This document shows, piece after piece, positions 4,906 to 38,513 of a DNA stretch of 39,546 nt (position 1 is its first letter; each line of letters starts with the position of its first letter). The notes beneath the pieces are model-generated. The model was given only the letters and a program-made list of their open reading frames with translations. It was not told where the DNA came from and made no database searches. Both the position numbers and the translations under genes were made by a program. The stretch is from Leptospirales bacterium (GTDB taxonomy: Bacteria; Spirochaetota; Leptospiria; Turneriellales; JAOUFE01): NCBI GenBank assembly GCA_040326155.1, contig JBEQLE010000040.1, forward strand, positions 1-39,546, read 5' to 3'.

Positions 4906-5805
4906 TTGACCGCGGGAACCAATAAAATTGTCAAAGAATTTCGAGAGTACCTGGAAGTAGAACGAGGTCTTTCGGAAAACAGTATTTTTTCATACTTATC
5001 CGACATAAACAAGTTCGATAGATTCTTAAATAAAGAACATAAAGAGTTTACCGAGATCAGTCGTATAGAGATACAGGAATTTTTACGAGAGGAAACCAAA
5101 AAACAGGTCTCTACTCGCACAAAAGCAAGGGTAATTGCGTCGTTAAGGCAATTTTATAACTACCTTGAAAATCTTAAATTAATTGATATTAATCCGATGG
5201 ATAAAGTGGAAAGCCCTAAAATTGAAAGGCAGCTTCCCGATTATTTGACCCAGGATGAAATAAAAAAACTGTTCTCCGTTTTTGTAGATAGCAATCCGCT
5301 AGAAATACGCGACTTGACCATGTTCGAGCTTATGTACTCCGCCGGACTTCGTATTTCAGAAGCATGCTCTTTAAAAACCCGAGATATCGATATGGATAGT
5401 TTACTTATAAACGTAATAGGGAAGGGCGGTCGTGAACGGCTCGTCCCGTTCGGAGAAATTGCCCACGAACAACTAGAAAGATATATCAAGTCAGAGCGAA
5501 CCGAAATTCTGGGCGATCGTACATCTGAATATCTATTCGTTTCTCGTAAAGGTGGATTTTTAAACCGAAAATCAGCCTGGAGACTTCTAAAGCGATATAT
5601 TGACAGGGCCGATATTAAGAAACACATTACACCACACACTCTGCGTCACTCCTTTGCGACCCATTTATTGCAAAACAACGCCGACCTTCGCGCCGTTCAA
5701 GAACTTCTTGGTCACATCGATATTTCAACTACGCAAATTTATACCCACCTTGTATCTGACGAGCTAAAGAAAGCCCACAAAAAATTTCACCCCAGATCAA
5801 AGTAA
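4906..5805 (+). CDS. xerD: Site-specific tyrosine recombinase XerD
   Basis: ERGLSENS N-terminus, YSAGLRISE, GKGGRERLVP, HTLRHSFATHLL, VQELLGH, TTQIYTH. 299 aa, with no obvious IntI-specific insertion. Confidence 0.88.
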   Translation: MTAGTNKIVKEFREYLEVERGLSENSIFSYLSDINKFDRFLNKEHKEFTEISRIEIQEFLREETKKQVSTRTKARVIASLRQFYNYLENLKLIDINPMDKVESPKIERQLPDYLTQDEIKKLFSVFVDSNPLEIRDLTMFELMYSAGLRISEACSLKTRDIDMDSLLINVIGKGGRERLVPFGEIAHEQLERYIKSERTEILGDRTSEYLFVSRKGGFLNRKSAWRLLKRYIDRADIKKHITPHTLRHSFATHLLQNNADLRAVQELLGHIDISTTQIYTHLVSDELKKAHKKFHPRSK

Positions 5806-5873: not shown

Positions 5874-5931
5874 GACGTATTTTATTCGTTTTGTAAATTG
5901 TTTGGGGATAAAAAAGAGAAAGAATTATTGC

Positions 5932-6020
5932 AAGGAAGGCAGGAAGTGCAGGAAGTCAGGAAAAGAGGAATAAGAAAGGAGGAAGAAATTTTGACAGGAT
6001 TAACAGGATTTACAGGTTAA
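5932..6020 (+). repeat. Purine-rich island-flanking repeat, left arm of island 1
   Basis: AAGGAAGGCAGGAAGTGCAGGAAG...TTGACAGGATTAACAGGATTTACAGGTTAA, built of 8-9-nt subunits. Related copies at 12405-12486 (inverted), 19449-19612 (both arms), 34334-34420 and 38334-38377 (inverted). Confidence 0.9.
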
Positions 6021-6355: not shown

Positions 6356-6820
6356 ATGAGCGAATTCGATAATTTTATTCAAAAAGTCCAGGAAAGATTT
6401 CCAGGCTTAAAATATGAAATTGATAAGGCTGAAACAAAATCTGGATCAACCTGGGTCGATATATATTCAGAAGAAGAAAGTATAACGATTGAATTTAGAC
6501 CGAATTATGGATTTGGTCTTTATAAAGGAGATTCATCAAGCTATGGAGAGGGACCAAATGAAATTTATCGTAGTCAAGATCTGGCTGTAAAAAGAGTAGA
6601 AGCTATATTAAAAGACCATAAACTCGAGGTTCGATTAGATGAACTACAGGAGATGTTCGGTCAAGCAGATGTTAAGTCAAAGGAAAGTAATATTTCGAAT
6701 CATAAAATTCAAGAACTAATTTCTTTTATAGAGAGTCGAGGCGGTTCATTAGAGATAAATGCTCACTTTGAAGAATGTGATTTGCCGATTTCATTAAATT
6801 CTGTATCAAACAACATGTAG
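6356..6820 (+). CDS. Hypothetical protein with a degenerate XRE/HTH antitoxin-like C-terminus
   Basis: LDELQEMFG...ELISFIESRGGSLEINAHF resembles the YIEALGGxLxIxAxF tail of XRE antitoxins, but the recognition helix looks shortened. Confidence 0.5.
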   Translation: MSEFDNFIQKVQERFPGLKYEIDKAETKSGSTWVDIYSEEESITIEFRPNYGFGLYKGDSSSYGEGPNEIYRSQDLAVKRVEAILKDHKLEVRLDELQEMFGQADVKSKESNISNHKIQELISFIESRGGSLEINAHFEECDLPISLNSVSNNM

Positions 6821-6923: not shown

Positions 6924-7182
6924 GTCTAACGTTTCAATTTTATCTGGCGTTTTGGGGTTACTTGAGTCAGCCTTGCGAGCACCAAACGAACCTCCCGTAG
7001 GCTTTCGCTATTTGCCAAAGAGTTTGGCGCGAGCTTGGCGGATTAGTCGAGGCACCCCAAAATGTGGCCGAATAATTACTATAATACAAAAGAACAGAAA
7101 ATCTTTTTATTGTTAATACAATTTCAGGATCTATCATTATTAGGCCCGAAGGCGCGCCTGAGCAGATGAAAATTTGTTATCT
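6924..7182. repeat. attC-like fold-back recombination site, copy 1
   Basis: GTCTAACGTTTCAATTTTATCTGGCGTTTTGGGG...CCCCAAAATG...CGAAGGCGCGCCTGAGCAGATGAAAATTTGTTATCT. TAAC/GTTA termini with nested stems. Confidence 0.85.
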
Positions 7183-7201
7183 GATGTGGTGCACTGGGTA
7201 G

Positions 7202-8938
7202 TTAACTAAGTTTGGCAATTATACTATCCATCATATGATGAATGTTTTTAGTCGTAATCTCGTCTATATTCTTAAAGAAATCCTTTTGTTTGGCTTTACT
7301 GGAGTAGTATAAAGAAATAAATCCTTTTTTACAATTATTACTGCCGACTAAATTCATTAGTATAGTTTGATCATTATCAGAAAGTAAGCTTTCTATTGCA
7401 ATATTCGATGACTTATCTGGCGTATTCACGAACAGCCATTTTTTTGCTTCCTCATCCCCAAAATATTCATTGTATGTTTCGTGAGCACTCAAGCCTTCCG
7501 CATCTGAATCTAATAACAATGAATATTTATTTGACCAAGCAATGGAGTAAGAAATTAAATCCTTTAAATTTGTAGCACCTGCACCCGGTAAAATAGTGAT
7601 TGATGTATTATTGTACTTACTGATGTTTTTCAATATCATCTCAAAAAGATAAAAATCGGTAATGCCTTCTGTTATCAAGATATCATTTTCTTTGAAATTC
7701 AATACAGTACCAGCATTTAAGTGCAGCGCATGATACACAGGATCGAGTGCACCAGAAGAACGAGTGGTTTGATTATAGTCACCAAAATTTTGAAGTAAAA
7801 CACTACTCCCAACCCGACTTGCAATTTTAATACTGGAAATATTGATTATGTCGGGAACGAGCAAATGTTCTGAATGAGTACAGAATATTACTTTATTTGT
7901 CTTAGAAATTAGTTTTAATGAATTCAATAGTTCACTTTGGGCGGAAGAATGTAAGTAAGAGCCTGGTTCATCCAATAAGTAAATAGCATTTTCAAACTCC
8001 GAAGTATACTTAATATTGTATTTCAATTTTATAGCAAAGTTAAAAAACCATTGAAAACCTTTACTGCGTTCCCGAATATTGAAGTGCCTTTTTTTATCTT
8101 TAAAATTTTTATCTATTACTTTAAATGCAAAGACATGAATCCCTTTATTCGCGTCATGATCATAGTCTAACTTGAGCGTTAGACCACCAATTTCACTTTT
8201 TAATGATTGTTTCAGGACTTTTAGTTTCTGCCAATTCTTTATGATGTCCTCATCTAGTTTATCAGTAACATCATCAAGAACACCGTCTCTTTCTTCCTTG
8301 TTAACAATTTTAATGAATTTATTGAGTGGAACTTTTCTATCAGTAGCTCTGTAGAAAATCTCTTCAATAAATAAATTCCATTCATCTGGCTTAAAAGTTT
8401 CTTCAGCGGCAGTATTGGTAAAGTATGAATTAGGAAATACTATTCGATCGGGAACCCGGTCTGTGAAGTCGTCGAAATAGAGTAAAAATGGGGTAATTTT
8501 AAGTATTTTCGATACAACTTCTTGTTTAGTTTCGAGGTCAGCATCAAGTTCGGGAATATCATATTTTCTAGTATCAATATTTCTTTCAATGTATATAGGA
8601 TTTTTAACTTTAAAAAATTCATTAAGTACCATATATTTCTTTGAAGACTTTTTACCGGATAGTTTGCTTAACAATGACTCTTTTTCTTGTTTGTTGTCAA
8701 AAACTACCTCTGCTGCTATTATGTGATCAACTGAACCATATTCGTAACGATTTCGAGCATCCAAATGTGCGCCGTTTTGAATGTTATCACAATCATGATC
8801 GAATGCTAATATCGCTTGTAATATACTTGTTTTCCCAGATTCATTGATACCAATTATCGGTATCAAACTGTTTTTGAATTTAATTTCTGCATCTTTGACA
8901 GCTTTGTATTTTTTAATAACAAACCTTTTGTATTTCAT
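7202..8938 (-). CDS. OLD-family-like ATP-dependent nuclease (ABC ATPase + TOPRIM), cassette cargo
   Basis: Walker A GINESGKTS, signature-like RSKGFQW, Walker B LLDEPGSYLH, H-loop CTHS, TOPRIM ITEGITD and LLDSD. Start placed at MKYKRF. Confidence 0.85.
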   Translation of the reverse strand: MKYKRFVIKKYKAVKDAEIKFKNSLIPIIGINESGKTSILQAILAFDHDCDNIQNGAHLDARNRYEYGSVDHIIAAEVVFDNKQEKESLLSKLSGKKSSKKYMVLNEFFKVKNPIYIERNIDTRKYDIPELDADLETKQEVVSKILKITPFLLYFDDFTDRVPDRIVFPNSYFTNTAAEETFKPDEWNLFIEEIFYRATDRKVPLNKFIKIVNKEERDGVLDDVTDKLDEDIIKNWQKLKVLKQSLKSEIGGLTLKLDYDHDANKGIHVFAFKVIDKNFKDKKRHFNIRERSKGFQWFFNFAIKLKYNIKYTSEFENAIYLLDEPGSYLHSSAQSELLNSLKLISKTNKVIFCTHSEHLLVPDIINISSIKIASRVGSSVLLQNFGDYNQTTRSSGALDPVYHALHLNAGTVLNFKENDILITEGITDFYLFEMILKNISKYNNTSITILPGAGATNLKDLISYSIAWSNKYSLLLDSDAEGLSAHETYNEYFGDEEAKKWLFVNTPDKSSNIAIESLLSDNDQTILMNLVGSNNCKKGFISLYYSSKAKQKDFFKNIDEITTKNIHHMMDSIIAKLS

Positions 8939-9004
8939 ATAGACATTATGTCCCTTTAAGTTCAAGTGTAAATAACTATATCGAATTTAATCGTGCACCA
9001 TTTC

Positions 9005-9178
9005 AGGTAACGTTTAAATTTTATCTGACGTTTTGAGATTAACCGAGTCAGCCATGCTCGCACCAAACTAACCTCAAGTTTCGTGCGAGCTTGGCGGTTA
9101 AACTCAGGTAGTCTCAAAATGTGGTTGAGCTCTAGCGAAACCCGAAGGCGCGCCTGAGCAGATGAAAATTTCTAATCG
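9005..9178. repeat. attC-like site, copy 2 (right core mutated GTTA to CTAA)
   Basis: AGGTAACGTTTAAATTTTATCTGACGTTTTGAGA...TCTCAAAATG...CGAAGGCGCGCCTGAGCAGATGAAAATTTCTAATCG. Confidence 0.85.
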
Positions 9179-9261
9179 GATGTAAACGCTAGTATAAGCA
9201 AACACCAAGTGAAGCACGAGGCCGAGCTGGTGAGTAAAATTACTGTAACTTTTAATACAGG

Positions 9262-10023
9262 TTATTTTAGATCAGGTTTGTTGTTGTTAGTAGTTGCCTT
9301 TGAAACGTTTATAATATCGTGAATTAAAGATAGCTCTTTACTATTTAGAATATCACGCTGAATAATACAAAAAGGTAAATTAGGTTTTAACATAAATTTT
9401 TCAAAAAGACCAGTAGTTTTGCGTTTGTCGACTTTAATATAAACAACGTAAATACCAAGATAGATACGATAAAAGTTTATTTGATCCCATTTTTCCAAAT
9501 GCGGATCTAGAATAAAGGCTTTAGTATCTTTTGGCAGTTCAAATTTAGATAGAATAACACTGAAATCATTTGCAGATCCGGGTTCTCTGCGCTCAATATG
9601 ATTTTTGGCGATTGATTCAAATGGTCCAAGGTCTATTTTGGCAAAAAAATCATGATTTGTGATTGATGCTCGCCACAACAATGAGATAAAAAATAATTTT
9701 AAAAGATCATATTTATATTGAGATATTTCATAGCCAACAATTACCTCATCTTTGATTTTTGGTATTGCATCCTTAGGATTATTGGTGAGAAGAGTTTGTG
9801 CATAATTATCCCAATCAGCGAAAATGCCATCACAATCTTTACATAAAATATTCTCATCATAAATACCAATAGGTGAACGTTTGGGAAAATCTTTATTATT
9901 GTTGAGGATTTTAAGAACATTTTTTTCACTTCGGATTTGCCTATAAAAACCTTCAGGAATTATATGAGCCTTTATGAGTTTTTTTTTATACCCGCAGAAT
10001 TTACATCGATTGGTTTGTTGCAT
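9262..10023 (-). CDS. HNH-like zinc-binding endonuclease family protein, cassette cargo
   Basis: CKFC...KAHIIP...ENILCKDCD pattern; C-terminal LFFISLLWRASI. Start placed at MQQTNRC. Confidence 0.65.
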   Translation of the reverse strand: MQQTNRCKFCGYKKKLIKAHIIPEGFYRQIRSEKNVLKILNNNKDFPKRSPIGIYDENILCKDCDGIFADWDNYAQTLLTNNPKDAIPKIKDEVIVGYEISQYKYDLLKLFFISLLWRASITNHDFFAKIDLGPFESIAKNHIERREPGSANDFSVILSKFELPKDTKAFILDPHLEKWDQINFYRIYLGIYVVYIKVDKRKTTGLFEKFMLKPNLPFCIIQRDILNSKELSLIHDIINVSKATTNNNKPDLK

Positions 10024-10193
10024 AATACTAATGTTGAGGCTTTGCAAGCCGTACAAATATCAAGAGTGTAGTGCCAATATGTTTCCCCTTTTACAAGTGT
10101 TATTTTCAGCTAATAAAGCTATATCCGACATAGCCCTGTAACCAAAGAATAATTGCTCTTCGTTTTACACCAAGCAGAGAAACACATTATAGT

Positions 10194-10321
10194 AGGTACG
10201 AGGGAGGGAATTCGAACCCCTCTACGTCCTTATCGGCCAGCAAACATTTCAAATAAATACACCACCTCTCGTAAAGGTTGGAATGTCCCACCATGGCCTC
10301 GCAAGAACGCCACTCCGCACC
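10194..10321 (-). ncRNA. tRNA-shaped RNA with an enlarged anticodon arm (candidate C4/CI-like antisense RNA); not a functional tRNA
   Basis: Minus strand: closing stem GGTGCGG/TCGTACC, D-like hairpin TGGC...GCCA, long stem TGGTGGGACATTCCAA/TTGAAATGTTTGCTGG, variable arm CC-GATAA-GG, T-arm GAGGGG-TTCGAAT-TCCCTC, 3' end ACCT. Confidence 0.6.
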
Positions 10322-10469
10322 ATACACATGATTTAACGTTTGTAATTTTCAATACAAGCTCCTTTACTTTATTTACGCTACTTTTGATAGTTTCAACTAG
10401 CTCAGTCACCTGGGATTCCAACCCAAACGAGATGTCAGTATTTATTTCCACATTTACATTTACAGCCAA
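10230..10469 (-). CDS. Possible 79-aa leader ORF overlapping the tRNA-like RNA and its complementary site
   Basis: ORF track, TTG start. Position is analogous to ORFs overlapping phage immunity RNAs; may be non-coding. Confidence 0.25.
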   Translation of the reverse strand: MAVNVNVEINTDISFGLESQVTELVETIKSSVNKVKELVLKITNVKSCVWCGVAFLRGHGGTFQPLREVVYLFEMFAGR

Positions 10470-10612
10470 TTCTGAGCGTTTCTACAACCCATGTACAACA
10501 CTCACATTTATGATATCTAAAAGGATTACATAATTCGGTTACAATGTCAATACTTATTCTTTATCCCATGAGCACAGGAGGTGCGAGCTTGAGAACCAAA
10601 CCGCGTTTTTTC

Positions 10613-10860
10613 GCATAACGCTTCAATTTTATCTGACGTTTTGGGGTTAACGTAGCTAGCCCTGCGAGCGCAAAACAAACCTCAAGTTTGGTGCGAGTAG
10701 GGCGGTTAAGCGGAGTTAACCCCAAAATGTGGGTGAGCATCTGCAAAAAAAACAATTGAACGAATGTCTCTATAAAAGTACAATCCATTTCAAAGTATAA
10801 AACGATGCGAACCCCGAAGGCGCGCGCAGTCGCGCCTGAGCAGATTAAAATTTGTTAGGC
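10613..10860. repeat. attC-like site, copy 3
   Basis: GCATAACGCTTCAATTTTATCTGACGTTTTGGGGTTAAC...GTTAACCCCAAAATG...CGCCTGAGCAGATTAAAATTTGTTAGGC. Confidence 0.85.
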
Positions 10861-10876
10861 GCAGGATTAACCCTAG

Positions 10877-12229
10877 ATGGACATAGAAGAAATTACTAAA
10901 GAATATCATGAAATAAAGAAGTTGCCTTCTGCCAAGATTACTGCTCAGCAAAGAGGGATTACATTTGAAAAACTTATCAATCAATTATTTGATATCCACA
11001 ATATTTCAATTAAATCAGGTTATCATACTAGTGATAATAAGTCGGAGCAAATTGATGGAGTGATAGAAGTATACCATAGAATAATATTACTTGAAATTAA
11101 ATGGGTGGAGGTGAATTTAGCTGCATCACATTTATATTCATTTATTGGAAAAGTAGATAACAAACTTGATGGAACTTTGGGCCTGTTTATCTCATACGAA
11201 GAATTATCAAATAATTTTATTGAATCAATTAGTAAAGGTAGACATAGAAATATTTTGATAATTCATGGATCAAGTAATATTGATCTATTATTTACAAAAG
11301 ATTTTCCAATAGTATTATACCTAGAATACATAATTAAACTGAGTTCATACGATAATATCAATGAATTTTCTGCAACACAATTCAACAATTTAGTAAAAGA
11401 AGACAAGGTGATTTCAAAAAATATTACTCGATTGGATAAATCAACAAAAAGTGATTTTCTTAAATATATTTTAGTGAAAAAGGAAATCGAGGATTATTTG
11501 ATTGAGGAGAAAGTGGCCGATTTGTCTGAAGAAATTATGGTTGGCGTAATTGAGTACTTATTGGAAAATTTTTCAATGTACTATAGAAGTTATATTGCTA
11601 ATGTTTCAAAAAAGAAAAATTATTTATTTCTAAATTTTGCAAGTGCTATCAGCCTTATATTAAAAAATGGAAAGATTATCAAATCGGTAACACCAAAATA
11701 TGTAAAGTTATTTGAAAAAACTCATGACTTAAACTTGTTAAATCCAATTATATTTACAAGGCTTGAAAAACCAATATATGAGTATGAAAGTTCCAGGAAA
11801 AAGAAAATATTTTCCGAAACATTGTTGGAAACGTTGAAAGAAAACCGAGGTGATTTTAATACAGAGAATACACTTACATATATCTTAGAAAATGTTTGGT
11901 CAAAAATACCAGAGAATATACGCAAGGAAATATTTGGTATTTATATGGATTTTCTATTTAGTTCAAGAAATTATGGCTTTGGACAGAAAGATTATGCAAA
12001 AACATTGATTAGCACAAATGTTGAACCCCTTAAAGAAAGTTTTATAGAAAGTTGGCTGGAACAACAAGTAGCTCTAGAGGTAGAAGAGTTCCCCATTAGC
12101 ACAGATGACCTAGACAGGGGAGCAAAATATTTTACGAGACGGTTCAAAGATGTAGCATATGGTTTAAATAAATCTGATGAAGAGCTGTATATTTACATTA
12201 GGAATTTGTTCGAAAGACACATGCCTTAA
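10877..12229 (+). CDS. PD-(D/E)XK (Mrr-like) restriction endonuclease domain plus an unrecognised C-terminal domain, cassette cargo
   Basis: RGITFEKLI...EQIDGVIE...LLEIKW...GLFIS motifs; very AT-rich. Confidence 0.75.
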   Translation: MDIEEITKEYHEIKKLPSAKITAQQRGITFEKLINQLFDIHNISIKSGYHTSDNKSEQIDGVIEVYHRIILLEIKWVEVNLAASHLYSFIGKVDNKLDGTLGLFISYEELSNNFIESISKGRHRNILIIHGSSNIDLLFTKDFPIVLYLEYIIKLSSYDNINEFSATQFNNLVKEDKVISKNITRLDKSTKSDFLKYILVKKEIEDYLIEEKVADLSEEIMVGVIEYLLENFSMYYRSYIANVSKKKNYLFLNFASAISLILKNGKIIKSVTPKYVKLFEKTHDLNLLNPIIFTRLEKPIYEYESSRKKKIFSETLLETLKENRGDFNTENTLTYILENVWSKIPENIRKEIFGIYMDFLFSSRNYGFGQKDYAKTLISTNVEPLKESFIESWLEQQVALEVEEFPISTDDLDRGAKYFTRRFKDVAYGLNKSDEELYIYIRNLFERHMP

Positions 12230-12235
12230 TCTTGC

Positions 12236-12390
12236 GTCTAACAAATTTTATCTGCCCACCCCCGACCTAAATGGGCGTAGCCCTTCATGGCGCTCGTTCT
12301 GTCTCACAATGATATTTTTCATCAATTGTTTTTTCGTAGATGCTCAACCACATTCTCATGCCACCTCCGCTTACCCGCTTTGCTCACCTG
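12236..12390. repeat. attC-like site, copy 4 (inverted relative to copies 1-3, degenerate and truncated)
   Basis: GTCTAACAAATTTTATCTGC and CAATTGTTTTTTCGTAGATGCTCAACCACATT...CTCCGCTTACCCGC match the reverse complement of copy 3. Confidence 0.75.
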
Positions 12391-12404: not shown

Positions 12405-12486
12405 CACACAATCTTCTCTCAAATCATGTTAATCATGTAAATCCTGTCTATTCCTCTCCTCTTTTCCTGCACTTCCTGCCTTCCTT
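12405..12486 (-). repeat. Purine-rich island-flanking repeat, right arm of island 1
   Basis: AAATCATGTTAATCATGTAAATCCTGTC...TTCCTGCACTTCCTGCCTTCCTT. Confidence 0.9.
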
Positions 12487-12538
12487 AAAAAAATTTCTTT
12501 CTCCTCTTTCGTGACTCTTCAAAAGTATAAACCGATCT

Positions 12539-12620
12539 GTAGTGCGGTCGAATTCCGAACTACATACCAATGAATTTTCTACCTTAACAACCCTGAAATA
12601 CCGGTCTCGTTGCCGGCCAT
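12539..12620 (+). repeat. GTAG...CTAC REP-like repeat, copy A
   Basis: GTAGTGCGGTCGAATTCCGAACTACATACCAATGAATTTTCTACCTTAACA (51-bp core) followed by a GGTCTCGTTGCCGGCC tail. Confidence 0.85.
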
Positions 12621-12689
12621 ATTCTTTTTCTTAATCAGGTTTTTAAATAATATCTATTGACATTAGAGTTCAATAATATTTGGTTGCTC

Positions 12690-19429: not shown

Positions 19430-19448
19430 GAAAGAGAAGAGTAGATAT

Positions 19449-19612
19449 AAGGAAGGCAGGAATTACAGGAAAAGAAAAAGATTAATAGACAGGATTTACA
19501 TGATTAACATGATTTAAGAGAAATCGTTGTGTGCTAATTGAATATATCATCTTTCTTAACCTGTTAATCCTGTCAAAATTTCTTTTTTCATTCCTGTCTT
19601 CCTGCTTTCCTT
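19449..19612. repeat. Empty 164-bp inverted-repeat element (both island-flanking arms, no cargo) between convergent murG and metG
   Basis: AAGGAAGGCAGGAA...GACAGGATTTACATGATTAACATGATT, short spacer, TTAACCTGTTAATCCTGTC...TTCCTGCTTTCCTT. Confidence 0.9.
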
Positions 19613-19628
19613 ATAAAATTCTTTTTTT

Positions 19629-21185
19629 TTATTTTTCTTTTTCCACCAGGCTTAAGCGAGGAAAGTAGATCGGCCACTCTTCGAGTTTCATTGCCGTCAA
19701 TTGAATTTCTGAAATATTTTGGGGAAAACGATTTAGCTCTTTTTGTTGTAAAAGGTCGAAAATCTTTTTACTGCGTTCGGGCAAAACCGGTTGTAAATAG
19801 AATAATACTGTTAATATTCCTTTTAATAAGGTTTCGAGCAAGGGACGAAGTTCAGGTGAATTTTCTTTTGCCATTGCCCAGGGTTTATTTTCTTCTATAA
19901 TTTGATTTTGCAAACCGACCCATTCAAATACGGTTTCATAGGCCATGTGAAATTTGAAAGAGTTAAAGTTTTCATGAAACCCGTTCACTTTTGTATGAAT
20001 GAGATCGTTAATTTGTTTAGCACAGGCATGGTCTTCCAGGTTACCGACAATTTCACCGTCGAAATATTTTTTTATCATGCTTAAGGTGCGTTGCAATAAG
20101 TTACCTAAGCCATTGGCCAGGTCAATATTAACTCTGCTTTCTATGGCAGCTTCACTGAATTTTGAGTCTGAACCAAACGCCATTTCTCGAAGTAAAAAAT
20201 AACGCAATAGATCGATTCCCCCGACTTTTTCAGCTAATTCAATGGGGTCTGCGGCGTTTCCTAAAGATTTAGACATTTTTGCTTCACCAAAACCAAGCCA
20301 GTAACCATGCACCATTAATTTTTTATAATTCGGAATTTTGGCAGCCAGTAGCATCGAAGGCCAGAAAATACCATGTGGTTTTAAAATATCTTTCGCTATA
20401 ACATGGGTAGATTCGGGCCAGTAGGTTTTAAATTTTTCACTGTCCGGGCCGCCAATAGCGCTGATATAATTTAACAAAGCGTCAAACCAGACATACGTTA
20501 CAAAACGATTATCAAACGGAAGTTCAATTCCCCAGTCTAGCCGGGACTTTGGTCTTGAAATAGATAGATCTTCCTCTGTTTTTTTTAATTCCTGAATTGT
20601 TCCTAATACCTCATTGTAATATTGTTTGGGGCGAACAAATTCGGGGTTTTCTTTCAACTGTTTTTCGAGTTCTGGAAGGTATTTTTGCAGTTTAAAAAAA
20701 TAGTTTTCTTCTTTAATTATCTGCGGCTTTTGTTTATGGTCAGGACATTCCCCATTTTCGTTCAACTCTTTTTCTGTTAAATATCTTTCACAGCCAACAC
20801 AATATCGACCCTCATATTCAGAAAGATAGATATCACCCTGGTCATAAATTTTTTGCAAAATTTGACCGACAATTTTTTTGTGGTCGTCATCTGTAGTTCT
20901 TATAAATTGAGAATAGTCAATATTCAGAGAGTCCCATGTTTTTCGGAAAGTACCCGAAATTTCATCAACGTACTCACGAGCAGTTTTACCCTCTTTTTCT
21001 GCGGCCTGTACGATTTTATCGCCATGCTCATCGGTACCGGTTAAAAAATAGACATCTTTTCCCGATTGACGCTGGTATCTGGCCATAGCATCACATACAA
21101 TGGTTGTATATGTATGTCCAATATGGGGCAGACCGTTTACATAGTAGATCGGGGTTGTAATATAGTATGGTTGGTTATTGCTCAT
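19629..21185 (-). CDS. metG: Methionine--tRNA ligase (short form)
   Basis: TTPIYYVN, HIGH, TGTDEHG, YVWFDAL, KMSKS motifs. Confidence 0.97.
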   Translation of the reverse strand: MSNNQPYYITTPIYYVNGLPHIGHTYTTIVCDAMARYQRQSGKDVYFLTGTDEHGDKIVQAAEKEGKTAREYVDEISGTFRKTWDSLNIDYSQFIRTTDDDHKKIVGQILQKIYDQGDIYLSEYEGRYCVGCERYLTEKELNENGECPDHKQKPQIIKEENYFFKLQKYLPELEKQLKENPEFVRPKQYYNEVLGTIQELKKTEEDLSISRPKSRLDWGIELPFDNRFVTYVWFDALLNYISAIGGPDSEKFKTYWPESTHVIAKDILKPHGIFWPSMLLAAKIPNYKKLMVHGYWLGFGEAKMSKSLGNAADPIELAEKVGGIDLLRYFLLREMAFGSDSKFSEAAIESRVNIDLANGLGNLLQRTLSMIKKYFDGEIVGNLEDHACAKQINDLIHTKVNGFHENFNSFKFHMAYETVFEWVGLQNQIIEENKPWAMAKENSPELRPLLETLLKGILTVLFYLQPVLPERSKKIFDLLQQKELNRFPQNISEIQLTAMKLEEWPIYFPRLSLVEKEK

Positions 21186-34252: not shown

Positions 34253-34333
34253 ATAGGGCATGAGGGCTTAATTCCCTGTTTTGTAAATGAATTATTGTAG
34301 AGTAGCGGGGTTAATGAAGAAAGAGTTCAGGGT

Positions 34334-34450
34334 AAGGAAGGCAGGAAGGAAGGATAAGGAAGTACTGGAAAAGAAGGAAGAAGAGATTTTGACAGGATTT
34401 ACCGGTTAACAGGTTAAGAAAATACGGCCGGAAACGAGACTTGTATTTTA
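34334..34450 (+). repeat. Left arm of island 2: purine-rich repeat plus inverted tail of the REP-like repeat
   Basis: AAGGAAGGCAGGAAG...TTGACAGGATTTACCGGTTAACAGGTTAAG, then GGCCGGAAACGAGAC (reverse complement of the copy A/D tail). Confidence 0.85.
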
Positions 34451-34575
34451 AGCTCAAAACTTGTGAAATATAAGGTTCTGGGGCAAAGCGTATATGGGGA
34501 ATTGGGCTTTATTTATTATAATAACGAAGAAACAAAATGCGTGAAAACAAACAAGGTTAAAAGTATAACATTGTT

Positions 34576-34626
34576 GTAGTGCGGTCGAATTGTGAAGTGA
34601 ATAGCTATGAATTTTATACCTTAACA
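34576..34626 (+). repeat. GTAG REP-like repeat, copy B (diverged)
   Basis: GTAGTGCGGTCGAATTGTGAAGTGAATAGCTATGAATTTTATACCTTAACA. Confidence 0.8.
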
Positions 34627-34921
34627 TTTATTATATGCCTGTTTTGTTTATCGGAAATTATGCATAGCTTATTCTAGAAAGTTTACCAAAGCATAATTTA
34701 AGACATGTATATCATTCGATGATTATTATTTGTAATATATTATTGCAATTTACCGTCTGGATTTCATTGCGAAAACAGTATTCAACCCTGACAGAATTAT
34801 TGCTTTTGAGGGATATTTTGATTTTCGTTTGAATGATTAATAATTTGATTTAATCGATCTTAACATCAAAGGGAACCAAAATCTATATTCTGAATCGAAT
34901 CGCAGTTAAATACATTAATGT

Positions 34922-34969: not shown

Positions 34970-35227
34970 GTGAGTAAGCAAGAGAAGCTACTGAAAAGAT
35001 TTCTTTCGAAACCTAATGATTTTAAATACACTGAACTTGCAACTATGCTTTCTAAAATGGGCTATAATGAAATTAAAAAGGGGAAATCAAGTGGGTCTAG
35101 AGTTGCATTCGTTAATGAAAAAACTAAGCATATGATTCGATTACATAAACCTCATCCGAAGAATATATTGAAATTGTACCAAATAGAATTGATTATACAA
35201 GAATTTAAAAAAATGGAGTTACTATAA
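34970..35227 (+). CDS. hicA: HicA family toxin
   Basis: GKSSGSRVAF, LHKPHP motifs; paired with hicB. Confidence 0.9.
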   Translation: MSKQEKLLKRFLSKPNDFKYTELATMLSKMGYNEIKKGKSSGSRVAFVNEKTKHMIRLHKPHPKNILKLYQIELIIQEFKKMELL

Positions 35228-35568
35228 TGAAAGATGTTATCGTTCACAATGATTTTATCGGTTCAGTTCACTTTAGTACTGAAGATGAAATATTTTTCGG
35301 TAAGATCGAAGGTATTACTGACTTGGTAACCTTTGAAGGCGAGACTGTAAAAGACCTAAAAAAAGCATTTGAAGAAGCTGTTGCAGATTACATTGAGTTA
35401 TGTGAATCTTCCGGAAAGGAGATTTACAAATCGTATAAAGGTAGTTTCAATATTCGGATATCACCTGAATTGCATAAAAAAGCGGTTGAAATAGCTCAAT
35501 TGTCCGGGCTTTCGTTGAATCAATTTGTTGAAAACGCTATTGAGCACGAGGTTGTAAATATTGCCTAA
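35227..35568 (+). CDS. hicB: HicB family antitoxin
   Basis: FFGKIEGI.DLVTFEG, AVADY, YKGSFNIRISPELH, SLNQFV (RHH) motifs; TAATG coupling to hicA. Confidence 0.92.
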   Translation: MKDVIVHNDFIGSVHFSTEDEIFFGKIEGITDLVTFEGETVKDLKKAFEEAVADYIELCESSGKEIYKSYKGSFNIRISPELHKKAVEIAQLSGLSLNQFVENAIEHEVVNIA

Positions 35569-36319: not shown

Positions 36320-36641
36320 TCCTTGTTTAGATATCTATCGTTTGTCAATGCATTATTTGACAGTATAAAACCATAACATAGAACAATCCACCTTCTGTAT
36401 TCGCCCTGTAAAGGTATAACATAAACTGTGTTCGTTCAACGGCTTTATATGATAAAAATCGAGACTATCCGACTGAAGACCACGGCCCAAAAGTCAATAT
36501 TATGAGGTTATATGGGGTGATTCCGACTAGGTCAGGTTTAGAATAGAGATTGATAAATTATCCATAAAAATATATGAAAATAAAATCAACAAAAATCTGC
36601 GAAGCAAACATGAAATAAGGTTTTTGAATATATTCATTGTC

Positions 36642-36714
36642 GTAGTGCGGTCACATTCTGAACTATATACCAATGAATTTTCTACCTTAACATTTCTTAA
36701 ATACTGGTTTTGTT
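36642..36714 (+). repeat. GTAG REP-like repeat, copy C (tail similarity ends at GTT)
   Basis: GTAGTGCGGTCACATTCTGAACTATATACCAATGAATTTTCTACCTTAACA...GGTTTTGTT. Confidence 0.8.
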
Positions 36715-36734
36715 ATGCAAAAAAAATGATTTTA

Positions 36735-36763
36735 TTGACTATTGGTAATTTATATAGTATATT
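36735..36763 (+). promoter_or_regulatory. Putative sigma70 promoter
   Basis: TTGACT-17 bp-TATATT, followed by GAGG RBS and ATG 36789. Confidence 0.65.
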
Positions 36764-37030: not shown

Positions 37031-37999
37031 ATGCCGTTAAATTCCTTTGCTCAAGTTGTAATATTAATAGTATTTCTATTACCAGGTTTTATTTTAATAA
37101 AGGTAAGATAATATGTGCGCGAGTATAGAAATTTCGACTTATTTACAGCCACAATTCAATCTCTTTTCTTAAGTATCATCATAATCACGACATGGGGCTT
37201 AGTTAATTATTTTTCAGAATATTTTTTCCCTCACTATCACTTTTCTGAACACATTAAACAACTGTTAACAGTAGAGGAATACAATAATGTTTTGAATGGG
37301 AGTTGGCTTATTTTTGGGTTCTTAACGTTCCTTTCTACTGTTGTAATTTTTTCTATAATATTCTTCGTCTGGGAGTGGTTATCTTTAACACACCTCTTTG
37401 TTATAAATGTGCTGGGTTTTAAAAATAAAACTAAGAATTTAACTCCCTGGGAAGATCTTTTCACTTTAAGTCTCGGAAAATATGCCTTTATACGTACTAA
37501 AGATAAATTTTCTTATATGGGAAAAATTAATTATGTAAGCCACCACCCATTTGAAAGAGAATTAATACTTAGTGAACATGAGCACTATCCTTTAACAATA
37601 ATAAATGACTCTGGCGTGGAAGTTAAGTTTTCGGAAACCATAAATCATGCGTATATAAATGCCAAGGAAGTAGATTCCGTTTACATTATAGATACTGGTG
37701 TTAAGATTGATAAGTTGAAGCCCAGTGCAGATAATTCTGGAATACGCAATTTAATCATAACTCTCACGAATGTATTAACTGATTTAATCAAAAAAGCACC
37801 CGTATTTTTAACATTGTTATCATCATTGGTTTTTGCCATCAGTATGTATATTGGGACATTCACGCTTGCTAGCATTTTTGCTTGCGAACGAACATTTGAC
37901 TTTATAGATATCTTTTTATTAGTATTACCTTTTATTCTATTTTTTACTACAGTCCGTTTAGCGCGCTTCGGCTATTATAAATATTCAAATTTAATTTGA
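37031..37999 (+). pseudogene. DUF6338-like multi-TM protein interrupted by an in-frame TAA at 37109-37111
   Basis: ATG 37031 gives MPLNSFAQVVILIVFLLPGFILIKVR*YVREYRN..., in frame with the 294-aa ORF; LLPGF and TPWE motifs. Confidence 0.65.
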
Positions 38000-38186: not shown

Positions 38187-38250
38187 TTTTTATGCCTTTG
38201 CAGTTAAATTATCTCCTCTTTCGTAATTCTTTAAAAGTATAAACATTTCT

Positions 38251-38330
38251 GTAGTGCGGTCGCATTCCGAACTACATACCTATGAATTTTCTACCTCAAC
38301 ACTCCTAAAATTCAGGTCTCATTTACGGCC
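38251..38330 (+). repeat. GTAG REP-like repeat, copy D
   Basis: GTAGTGCGGTCGCATTCCGAACTACATACCTATGAATTTTCTACCTCAACA...GGTCTCATTTACGGCC. Confidence 0.85.
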
Positions 38331-38333
38331 ATC

Positions 38334-38377
38334 TTCCTCTTTTCCTGCCTTCCTTATCAATCCTTCCTACCTTCCTT
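38334..38377 (-). repeat. Right arm of island 2 (purine-rich repeat, inverted)
   Basis: TTTTCCTGCCTTCCTT...TTCCTACCTTCCTT. Confidence 0.8.
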
Positions 38378-38513
38378 ACAAAAATTTCTTTATTCTCTTT
38401 TTTCCTTCCTGCTGCCCTTGTGGCTAATTTCTGGAACGCTCTATTACAGTAAATAAAACTTGTCGCGAGGTATCGAAGCCATTTTTTGACTTAAATAGCG
38501 GGGTTTTACTATT

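Follow-up and report, generated by a model that had tools for sequence, protein, structure and literature searches.

Contig C106 of a Leptospirales bacterium assembly (genome G000) carries, between xerD (4906-5805) on the left and a redoxin operon (from 13110) on the right, an island in which long fold-back repeats alternate with single genes. The question raised by this locus is whether those genes are mobile cassettes and, if so, what kind of site bounds them and which recombinase acts on them. The window, by which we mean the whole 39.5 kb stretch analysed, holds five repeat copies, numbered c1-c5 from left to right. An earlier note on this DNA had placed them at 6924-7182, 9005-9178, 10613-10860, 12236 (inverted) and 38016, and had described single AT-rich genes facing both ways between them. 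The coordinates were confirmed and so was the alternation: genes among the copies lie on both strands and have 29-33% G+C, compared with 43-47% for the repeats and 39.6% for the genome (4.26 Mb in 171 contigs, 94.7% complete). For comparison we used 34 genomes of the order, G000 included, and 301 genomes of the phylum (G-numbers denote genomes). On the sequence evidence set out below, the repeats are probably attC-type folded-DNA sites bounding gene cassettes, and would be recombined by a tyrosine recombinase encoded on contig C12 that has no IntI-specific insertion.

Folded sites and their spread through the genome

Site ends in the window read ..TAAC-GTTTC-AATTTTATCTG.. on one side and ..CAGAT(N)AAAATT-T-GTTA.. 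on the other. The TAAC and GTTA termini that had been claimed are thus borne out by the located ends, and the asymmetry of the spacer is real as well, amounting to 5 nt on one side and 1 nt on the other, plus one bulged base. The AAC...GTT closure of the R box is the rule in the family in G000, where 22 of the 29 kept 5' ends are TAAC, three more are CAAC, and 40 of the 52 located 3' ends begin with GTT. Inside it lies the inner closing stem, an L stem of 11 bp in which AATTTTATCTG is paired with CAGAT-N-AAAATT; it hardly varies and carries one bulge, which can be any base and is missing in some copies. The three branches of the terminal structure are variable, both through compensatory changes and through optional inserts, of which one lengthens a stem by 25 nt and the other is an AT-rich block of ~70 nt. 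Fifteen copies with both ends exact measure 154-303 nt, which is above the attC range of roughly 57-141 nt.

The multibranched body described in the earlier note was tested by folding and by comparison between copies. As single-stranded DNA, c2 folds with z-scores of -5.7 (plus strand) and -5.1 (minus strand), and none of 200 shuffled sequences was as stable; for the minus strand of c3 the z-score is -2.9, and two of 200 shuffles reach the same stability. When 13 genomic copies are compared with the branched fold of c2, 81% of cells are paired, against 30-43% in controls in which the partners were slid by 1-3 columns. Pairs changed on both sides number 18 in the branched structure and 3-10 in the slid controls, and none of 500 shuffles reaches this value. 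The sites are thus conserved branched hairpins.

A strong fold with compensatory changes, placed at gene ends, would also be expected of hairpins that are conserved because they act as RNA, either as structured transcripts or as terminators. We give this explanation very little credence. An Rfam scan of the window returned no family even at E-values up to 1, scans for tRNA and tmRNA were also empty, both strands of the sites fold about equally well, and an RNA function leaves unaccounted for the complementarity between neighbouring flanks and the link to a recombinase described below. The hairpins may still have a secondary role as terminators.

The count of five copies given in the earlier note has to be corrected, as the family is spread genome-wide, with ~50 copies on ~45 contigs of G000. 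Profiles built with nhmmer from the window copies match c1-c3 with the 5' module (E-values of 2e-36 to 3e-41) and all five window copies with the 3' module. Across the genome they give 54 non-overlapping 5'-module matches on 39 contigs and 53 3'-module matches on 37 contigs, and 28 module pairs form elements of 99-309 nt. Small contigs (C7, C16, C41 and C140) hold two to five copies with a spacing of ~1.5 kb. Ends used for counting were located by profile anchoring, a fuzzy regular-expression census having given mostly false matches; seven 5' matches and one 3' match that lacked the end motif were left out, together with a spurious 5' end on C132. In a BLAST-level search of the 34 order genomes, the sequence family of the window was found in G000 and G003 only. 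When the window profiles were run against the recombinase flanks of relatives they matched in G001 alone, the sites of other genera being too diverged.

Cassette boundaries and the probable side of crossover

If the repeats bound cassettes, the two flanks of a site should be related to those of its neighbours rather than to each other. We compared the reverse complement of the 18 nt before AAC with the 18 nt after GTT, taking in turn the same copy, the nearest upstream copy (same strand, within 6 kb; ten 5' ends in G000) and all 52 located 3' ends. In G000, the flanks of upstream neighbours match at a mean of 10.1 of 18 positions (n=10), whereas the two flanks of one copy match at 5.3 of 18 (n=15), against a background of 5.7. 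In five of the ten neighbour pairs the score (15, 14, 13, 12 and 11 of 18) exceeds that of every other among the 52 comparisons. One of these five is c1-to-c2, with flanks GTTATCTGATGTGGTGCAC and GTTACCTGAAATGGTGCAC: positions 7176-7197 are complementary to 8990-9011, with 12 of 18 scored positions matching. Four low neighbour scores can be accounted for, two by a missed 3' end lying between the copies (C16), one by a palindromic element at the core (C83) and one by decay of the c2 core.

The same signature is sharper in G012, a genome in a single contig that carries 20 sites of ~246 nt in the 20 kb upstream of its homologue of the C12 recombinase, spaced at 690-1250 nt and all in one orientation. 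Their ends read ..CAAC-GTTGG-ATTTACCTG.. and ..CAGGTAAAT-CTT-GTTG.., the same architecture as in the window. All 13 of the 13 adjacent pairs scored there match at 13-18 of 19 positions, each being the best of 20 comparisons, while own flanks score 8.0 and the background 8.1. In both G000 and G012, then, a cassette begins with nucleotides that pair with the stretch preceding its own site's core. Complementarity across neighbours together with unrelated own flanks points to circular cassettes with one complete site that were opened within that site, and the mechanism would be just this, a circular cassette opened within its site and then inserted. Chimeric sites of this kind are carried by integron arrays, according to the available text of Cury et al. 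(2016, PMC4889954). We regard it as very likely, on these sequence comparisons, that the units are gene cassettes bounded by attC-like folded sites.

A mobile repeat would be a simpler explanation, in the form of a miniature transposable element or a repetitive extragenic palindrome (REP)-like sequence that spreads alone, with the genes in between not mobile. The scatter of ~50 copies over ~45 contigs, many of them singletons in long contigs, would fit such an element, as would the mixed gene direction around the copies and the abundance of further intergenic repeat families, in which this genome is rich. It predicts, however, inverted ends of its own and a target duplication, and own flanks are at background; it is the flanks of neighbours that match, across the gene, and in four relatives arrays of 14 to at least 20 sites stand in one orientation beside the recombinase. 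We consider a mobile repeat quite improbable.

The flank test alone is blind to which of the two core triplets is the crossover point. In G012, 16 of the 20 units have an open reading frame (ORF) of at least 130 aa that faces away from the recombinase and stops no more than 72 nt before the site. At its recombinase-side end, the G012 array has a normal before-AAC flank followed by unique DNA without a hairpin, ~150 nt before the ORF, and G000 has the same type of junction (unique DNA against GTTATCGGCAATAAACGC) at a distance of 153 nt upstream of the C12 gene. In three single units of that genome (C7:362-2003, C112:5151-7316 and C138:45260-46900) such a junction comes first, then one sense gene and, at the end, a site, so that these single cassettes abut unique DNA at the core triplet; by eye, their genes encode a ParA-like ATPase, a secreted protein and a metallo-hydrolase-like protein. 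Taken together, ORF direction, the recombinase-side junctions and the single units place the crossover at the TAAC-side triplet. The top strand of c1-c3 would then be the minus strand of the window, and that of c4 and c5 the plus strand. This reverses the strand reading of the earlier note, in which the TAAC side was the start, on the strength of the unique-DNA junctions and the layout next to the recombinase. A comparison of paralogues on C138 and C118, tried for the same purpose, gave only 70 shared nt and no decision.

The R stem itself extends into the flanks to ~18 bp, with a conserved G-T/A-C position 11. At this position the flank on the 3'-module side has G and its partner T, in all 13 pairs of G012 and in five of six in G000, which means that one strand has a G-T wobble and the other an A-C mismatch. 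The folding strand is probably the one with the wobble, and the asymmetry lends the revised orientation a little additional support.

Six unique-DNA junctions in G000 share the same sequence of ~55 nt starting from GTTATCGGCAATAAACGC (C7:362, C12:9459, C82:9632, C91:2203, C112:7316 and C138:45260), which could be either a shared 5' module of cassettes or a derivative of an insertion site.

A candidate recombinase and its relation to integrons

Four tyrosine recombinases were found in G000: the XerD of the window, a XerC-like protein on C83 (topA-xerC-hslVU), a Xer-like protein on C141 and the C12 protein. The C12 gene (C12:8247-9305) encodes 352 aa with an 80-aa N-terminal extension, and the protein falls below every curated cut-off. 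With the integron-integrase model TIGR02249 (cut-off 265) it scores 181.8 bits in a match split in two that leaves out model positions 185-237, compared with 183.6 bits for the XerC model and 164.6 bits for the XerD model, the last being below the cut-off of 329.6. Aligned with a canonical IntI from another spirochaete family (itself scoring 508 bits), it has 31% identity, and the majority of the 43 gap positions fall opposite the IntI-specific insertion (IntI residues 178-236). The two proteins share a tail ending SPL/SPI after the catalytic tyrosine. Among solved structures the closest are archaeal XerA-type proteins, followed by VchIntIA (2a3v) and then XerD. Judged by TIGR02249 as a proxy for intI_Cterm, the C12 protein falls outside what IntegronFinder takes as an integron integrase.

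The case for C12 comes mainly from relatives. A homologue (36-46% identity), one per genome, is present in 20 of the 34 order genomes including G000, and its flanks were inspected in ten genomes. Besides the array of G012, at least 14 sites lie upstream of the homologue in G028 and at least three in G019, G018 has repeat families with the same end motif upstream, and G013 has two 212-nt repeats upstream. In G001, which belongs to the same family as G000, a window-type 5' module stands at the contig start, 1.7 kb before the homologue. G009 has two copies of a 600-nt tandem repeat, after which the contig ends, and in G002 and G003 the contig starts less than 500 nt from the homologue. In four genomes of one related genus the homologue stands right beside an array of homologous sites. 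Where arrays are seen in relatives, recombinase gene and array are divergent, with an attI-like junction ~150 nt from the gene. On balance it seems likely from this layout that a protein of the C12 type moves the cassettes. Beside the homologue in G018 we also noticed a locus, L070 (G018:C1:3456432-3458108), with four tandem units of 459 nt, each containing a site, that resemble amplified near-empty cassettes.

No canonical IntI scoring over the TIGR02249 cut-off was found in any of the 34 order genomes. The same search recovered full-length IntI (335-508 bits) in 29 of the 301 phylum genomes and so does detect the protein where it is present. An ordinary cluster of attC sites lacking integron-integrases (CALIN), served by a canonical IntI encoded in the unassembled 5% of G000 and unrelated to C12, would nevertheless be the conventional explanation. 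The incompleteness of the assembly and its 171 contigs leave space for such a gene, IntI does occur in the phylum, and the sites have attC-like AAC/GTT R-box cores and an L box with a bulged base. Against this stand the lack of IntI across the order, which extends to the single-contig G012 and to G018 and G028, both in few contigs, with their large arrays, and the sites themselves, whose length of 150-300 nt and 5-versus-1 nt spacer are unlike the attC scheme in the available text of Cury et al. (2016). We judge this explanation improbable.

XerC and XerD would be another source of mobility, acting either on dif-like modules or on Xer-dependent integrative elements, and the earlier note had offered an Xer-type recombinase, with xerD adjacent, as a possible mover. 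The window xerD (4906-5805, plus strand; Pfam Phage_integrase and SAM-like N domain) does lie only 1.1 kb from c1, and the C12 protein is itself Xer-like by its XerC-model score and its 36% identity to XerD. With 356.1 bits against the TIGR02225 model, however, the window XerD is over the curated cut-off of 329.6 and of the housekeeping type. Its relatives speak against a link as well. G001 keeps the synteny on the left (p417, p1675, omp, xerD) and has other genes on the right, and the hairpin sites are found at none of the four xerD loci of G001, G002, G003 and G013. Within G000 the sites are distributed over ~45 contigs, and arrays of relatives adjoin the C12-type gene, not xerC or xerD. A dif site consists of two 11-bp arms and a 6-bp spacer, and the site ends show, by eye, no such arms and spacer; apart from the Xer-like recombinase and the neighbouring xerD, likeness to XerC/XerD-dif ends there, since the present sites are long hairpins as opposed to a 28-bp double-stranded dif and the xerD adjacency is not conserved. 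Movement by XerC/XerD is thus very improbable, and that xerD is next to the sites is most simply taken as a coincidence, in a variable region with generic intergenic repeats on both sides. The broader proposal of the earlier note, a capture system distinct from classical integrons with its recombinase elsewhere in the genome, is supported by the flank signature, by the lack of canonical IntI and by the presence of homologues of the C12 protein beside arrays.

Several observations weigh against a reading of cassettes moved by C12. The assignment of the recombinase rests on adjacency in five relatives; in G000 itself only 256 nt of contig C12 lie upstream of the recombinase gene, so any array there is out of view. 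Around the homologue in G021, 20 kb to each side are free of arrays. By identity the C12 protein is equally near to the XerD of G000 (36% over 238 aa) and to IntI (31%), and a canonical intI could lie in the missing part of the assembly, which is 94.7% complete. Gene direction around the sites of G000 is mixed (25/48 against 14/27; 13/48 against 5/27 in a stricter count of ORFs of at least 100 codons with a stop within 60 nt). In the window, the flanks of c2 and c3 match at background (6 of 18), a score explained by decay of the c2 end, while c4 and c5 fall outside a simple cassette model. Two window genes also fit the model poorly, a 450-aa gene whose unit lies in an inverted bracket and a 154-aa gene beyond the last site.

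The cassettes described here are most like the sedentary chromosomal integrons and CALINs among known systems. Likenesses are arrays of gene plus folded site, AAC/GTT cores, a cassette start complementary to the sequence before the next core, divergence of recombinase and array, and scattered satellites without integrase; the L stem with a bulge, the unpaired spacer and the variable terminal structure may be counted with these. Differences are the recombinase, which here lacks the IntI-specific insertion, the longer multibranched sites, the 5-versus-1 spacer, the R stem of ~18 bp and, in G000, the mixed gene direction. In the accessible portions of Cury et al. (2016, PMC4889954), the IntI-specific region near patch III, with PF00589, defines IntI in IntegronFinder, and a paper by Messier and Roy (2001) is cited whose title states that the IntI insertion is necessary for activity. 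Near attC sites, the same portions also report 21 tyrosine recombinases that lack the IntI region, all judged not to be IntI; four of these, placed between IntI and Xer, were always found with fewer than three attC sites, unlike the arrays of 14 to at least 20 sites seen here. Cargo of defence genes, which the window cargo resembles, has been reported for chromosomal integrons in what is available of a recent preprint (10.1101/2024.07.02.601686).

The nearest published parallel that combines a non-IntI recombinase with accessory genes separated by repeats is rAID-1 of Bacteroidales, in which, from the part of the report available, a XerD-family recombinase heads an array of low-G+C accessory genes whose repetitive intergenic sequences the authors call integron-reminiscent (Ross et al. 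2019, bioRxiv 10.1101/471110). Its recombinase is at the 5' end, with co-directional genes downstream, and its cargo provides immunity to interbacterial toxins. Neither long branched hairpins nor a cassette-flank signature is described in that part of the report.

A recombinase profile run against all species genomes brought up a broad IntI/Xer-like family in many phyla, from which 79 of at least 602 loci were kept, and at eight of these 79 a 13-mer is repeated at least four times. A literature search, with subscription journals outside its coverage, returned no account of integron-like arrays with an insertion-less integrase in Leptospira-like spirochaetes, and none of this system in spirochaetes other than Treponema. 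The definition of integrons, the search for them and the account of their mechanism all turn on an integrase domain that touches bases flipped out of the folded attC site. One possibility, which we put forward tentatively, is that the order carries a second integron lineage, with a tyrosine recombinase that never had or has lost this additional domain, branched sites of 150-300 nt that use position 11 in place of extrahelical bases for strand choice, and dozens of satellites, many of them with defence genes. Were this so, current finders would overlook a whole class of gene-capture platforms, the IntI domain would be no prerequisite for recombination of folded sites, and there would be a living system, intermediate or parallel, in which to study how integrons arose from Xer-like recombinases. 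The order would also add a second and different spirochaete case to that of Treponema, the only spirochaete clade known to have integrons according to the available text of Wu et al. (2013, PMC3607928).

Probable cassettes, cargo and neighbouring repeats in the window

The five window sites are in different states of preservation. On the minus strand, c1 (6924-7182) is a complete attC-like hairpin of 259 nt that includes both optional inserts, the 25-nt stem extension and the AT-rich insert of ~70 nt; its core triplets, in plus-strand letters, are AAC at 6928-6930 and GTT at 7176-7178. Also on the minus strand, c2 (9005-9178) is the shortest full copy, at 174 nt, with a core that has decayed at 9172-9174, where CTA replaces GTT, and c3 (10613-10860) is another complete attC-like hairpin, of 248 nt. 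The plus-strand copies are both incomplete. The inversion of c4 (12236-~12420) that had been described holds, but the copy is truncated too: it lacks the last ~30 nt, comprising the L and R arms, and runs into an intergenic repeat, and it is probably not recombinable. Likewise flipped and truncated, c5 (38016-~38140) retains the core, the L arm and a GC hairpin alone, with segments complementary to the ends of c1-c3 at 87-94%. A copy on C138 is broken similarly to c4 and c5 and is followed by the same repeats.

Read as an array on the minus strand, the window would run from the 450-aa gene (antisense) with c3, through 556 nt of non-coding DNA and a 264-aa gene with c2, to an OLD gene with c1, while c4 and c5 would be plus-strand sites after the 450-aa gene and a 294-aa gene, by 10 and 17 nt respectively. 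The first inferred cassette (6930-9010, minus strand, 2081 nt) consists of the OLD gene followed by c1. This gene (7202-8965, minus strand) stops 20 nt before c1 and encodes a 587-aa OLD-family protein with ATPase and Toprim nuclease parts, which matches AAA_15 (4.7e-17) and OLD-like_TOPRIM (1.2e-4) in Pfam and AriA (6.5e-20) and Old (2.6e-19) in PADLOC, with weaker matches to GajA and PtuA.

The second inferred cassette (9011-10618, minus strand, 1608 nt) has the 556 nt of non-coding DNA (10057-10612) and the 264-aa gene (9262-10056, minus strand), which stops 84 nt before c2. The protein matches PHROGs families that lack an assigned function (7.6e-20) and unnamed ESM Atlas clusters at 0.98; HNH_5, carried by 13% of one cluster, is a weak lead. 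Judging by these matches, it belongs to a widespread family that is also present in phages. Within the non-coding part, the minus strand at 10196-10232 resembles a tRNA's T arm and 3' acceptor strand; neither ARAGORN nor Rfam gives a match for this segment, and it has no paralogue in G000.

Between c3 and c4 lies the unit with the 450-aa gene (10857-12239), whose inner flanks carry the same type of 17-mer in inverted orientation, with 15 of 17 positions equal. The gene (10877-12229, plus strand) has 29% G+C and its product matches nothing in Pfam, PADLOC or PHROGs. It is linked in the Atlas to Mrr_cat clusters at 0.83, which is a lead only, and has a PD-(D/E)xK-like motif by eye; we take it as a protein with a probable Mrr-like nuclease head. 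At the other end of the minus-strand array, beyond its last site, the 154-aa gene (6356-6820, plus strand, 33% G+C) is at most a candidate for cassette status. It has no family in Pfam, PADLOC or PHROGs, its flank at c1 (reverse complement GTTAGACGCTCG) departs from the usual base at position 11, and there is no site further left. The 294-aa gene (37115-37999, plus strand) encodes a membrane-like protein, again with no family in these three databases, and c5 starts 17 nt after it. A D2 repeat with its terminal GTT at 36711 might have provided the start site for a c5 cassette, but was rejected, the match of 13/22 by eye being too weak.

From the predicted proteins, the cargo of the window looks like a set of candidate anti-phage or defence genes, and an OLD-family nuclease, a probable Mrr-like nuclease and an HNH-like protein would fit the view of cassette arrays as stores of such genes. 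Provided that the sites count as attC-like, a window that has three full and two partial copies, with the housekeeping XerD as its sole recombinase, corresponds to a CALIN. The cluster looks like a partly decayed, CALIN-like satellite of three cassettes and two dead sites, partly immobile, with the main platform elsewhere.

Several other repeat families accompany the sites. A dispersed repeat of ~130 nt (core GTAGTGCGGTCG.ATTCCGAACTACATACC) has 37 profile matches genome-wide and four copies in the window (12508-12639, 34538-34676, 36604-36741 and 38220-38348), all upstream of plus-strand genes. Its copies end in ..GTT, and one directly follows each of truncated c4, c5 and the C138 site. A HicA toxin and HicB antitoxin pair (34970-35568; Pfam 1.3e-6 and 2.1e-20; 33% G+C) is located between two of these repeats. 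Further intergenic repeats, with CAGGAAGG... and GACAGGATTAACAGG motifs, occur in dozens of copies genome-wide and in the window at 5910-6011, 12414-12509, 19448-19635, 34318-34417 and 38338-38400, and inverted copies of this type stand on both flanks of the cassette island.

Finally, a palindromic miniature element of ~97 nt (ends GAGKCTGTAGAATAAGT) occupies precisely the GTT/AAC core in hairpin sites at C21:355-449, C81:13081-13176 and C114:297-392, and also on C58, C83 (4628), C91, C154 and C159. Longer insertions that share its first 17 nt are found at the same core spot. This recurrence suggests mobile elements specialised on the cores of hairpin sites, for which IS1111-attC elements and attC introns offer parallels in integrons.

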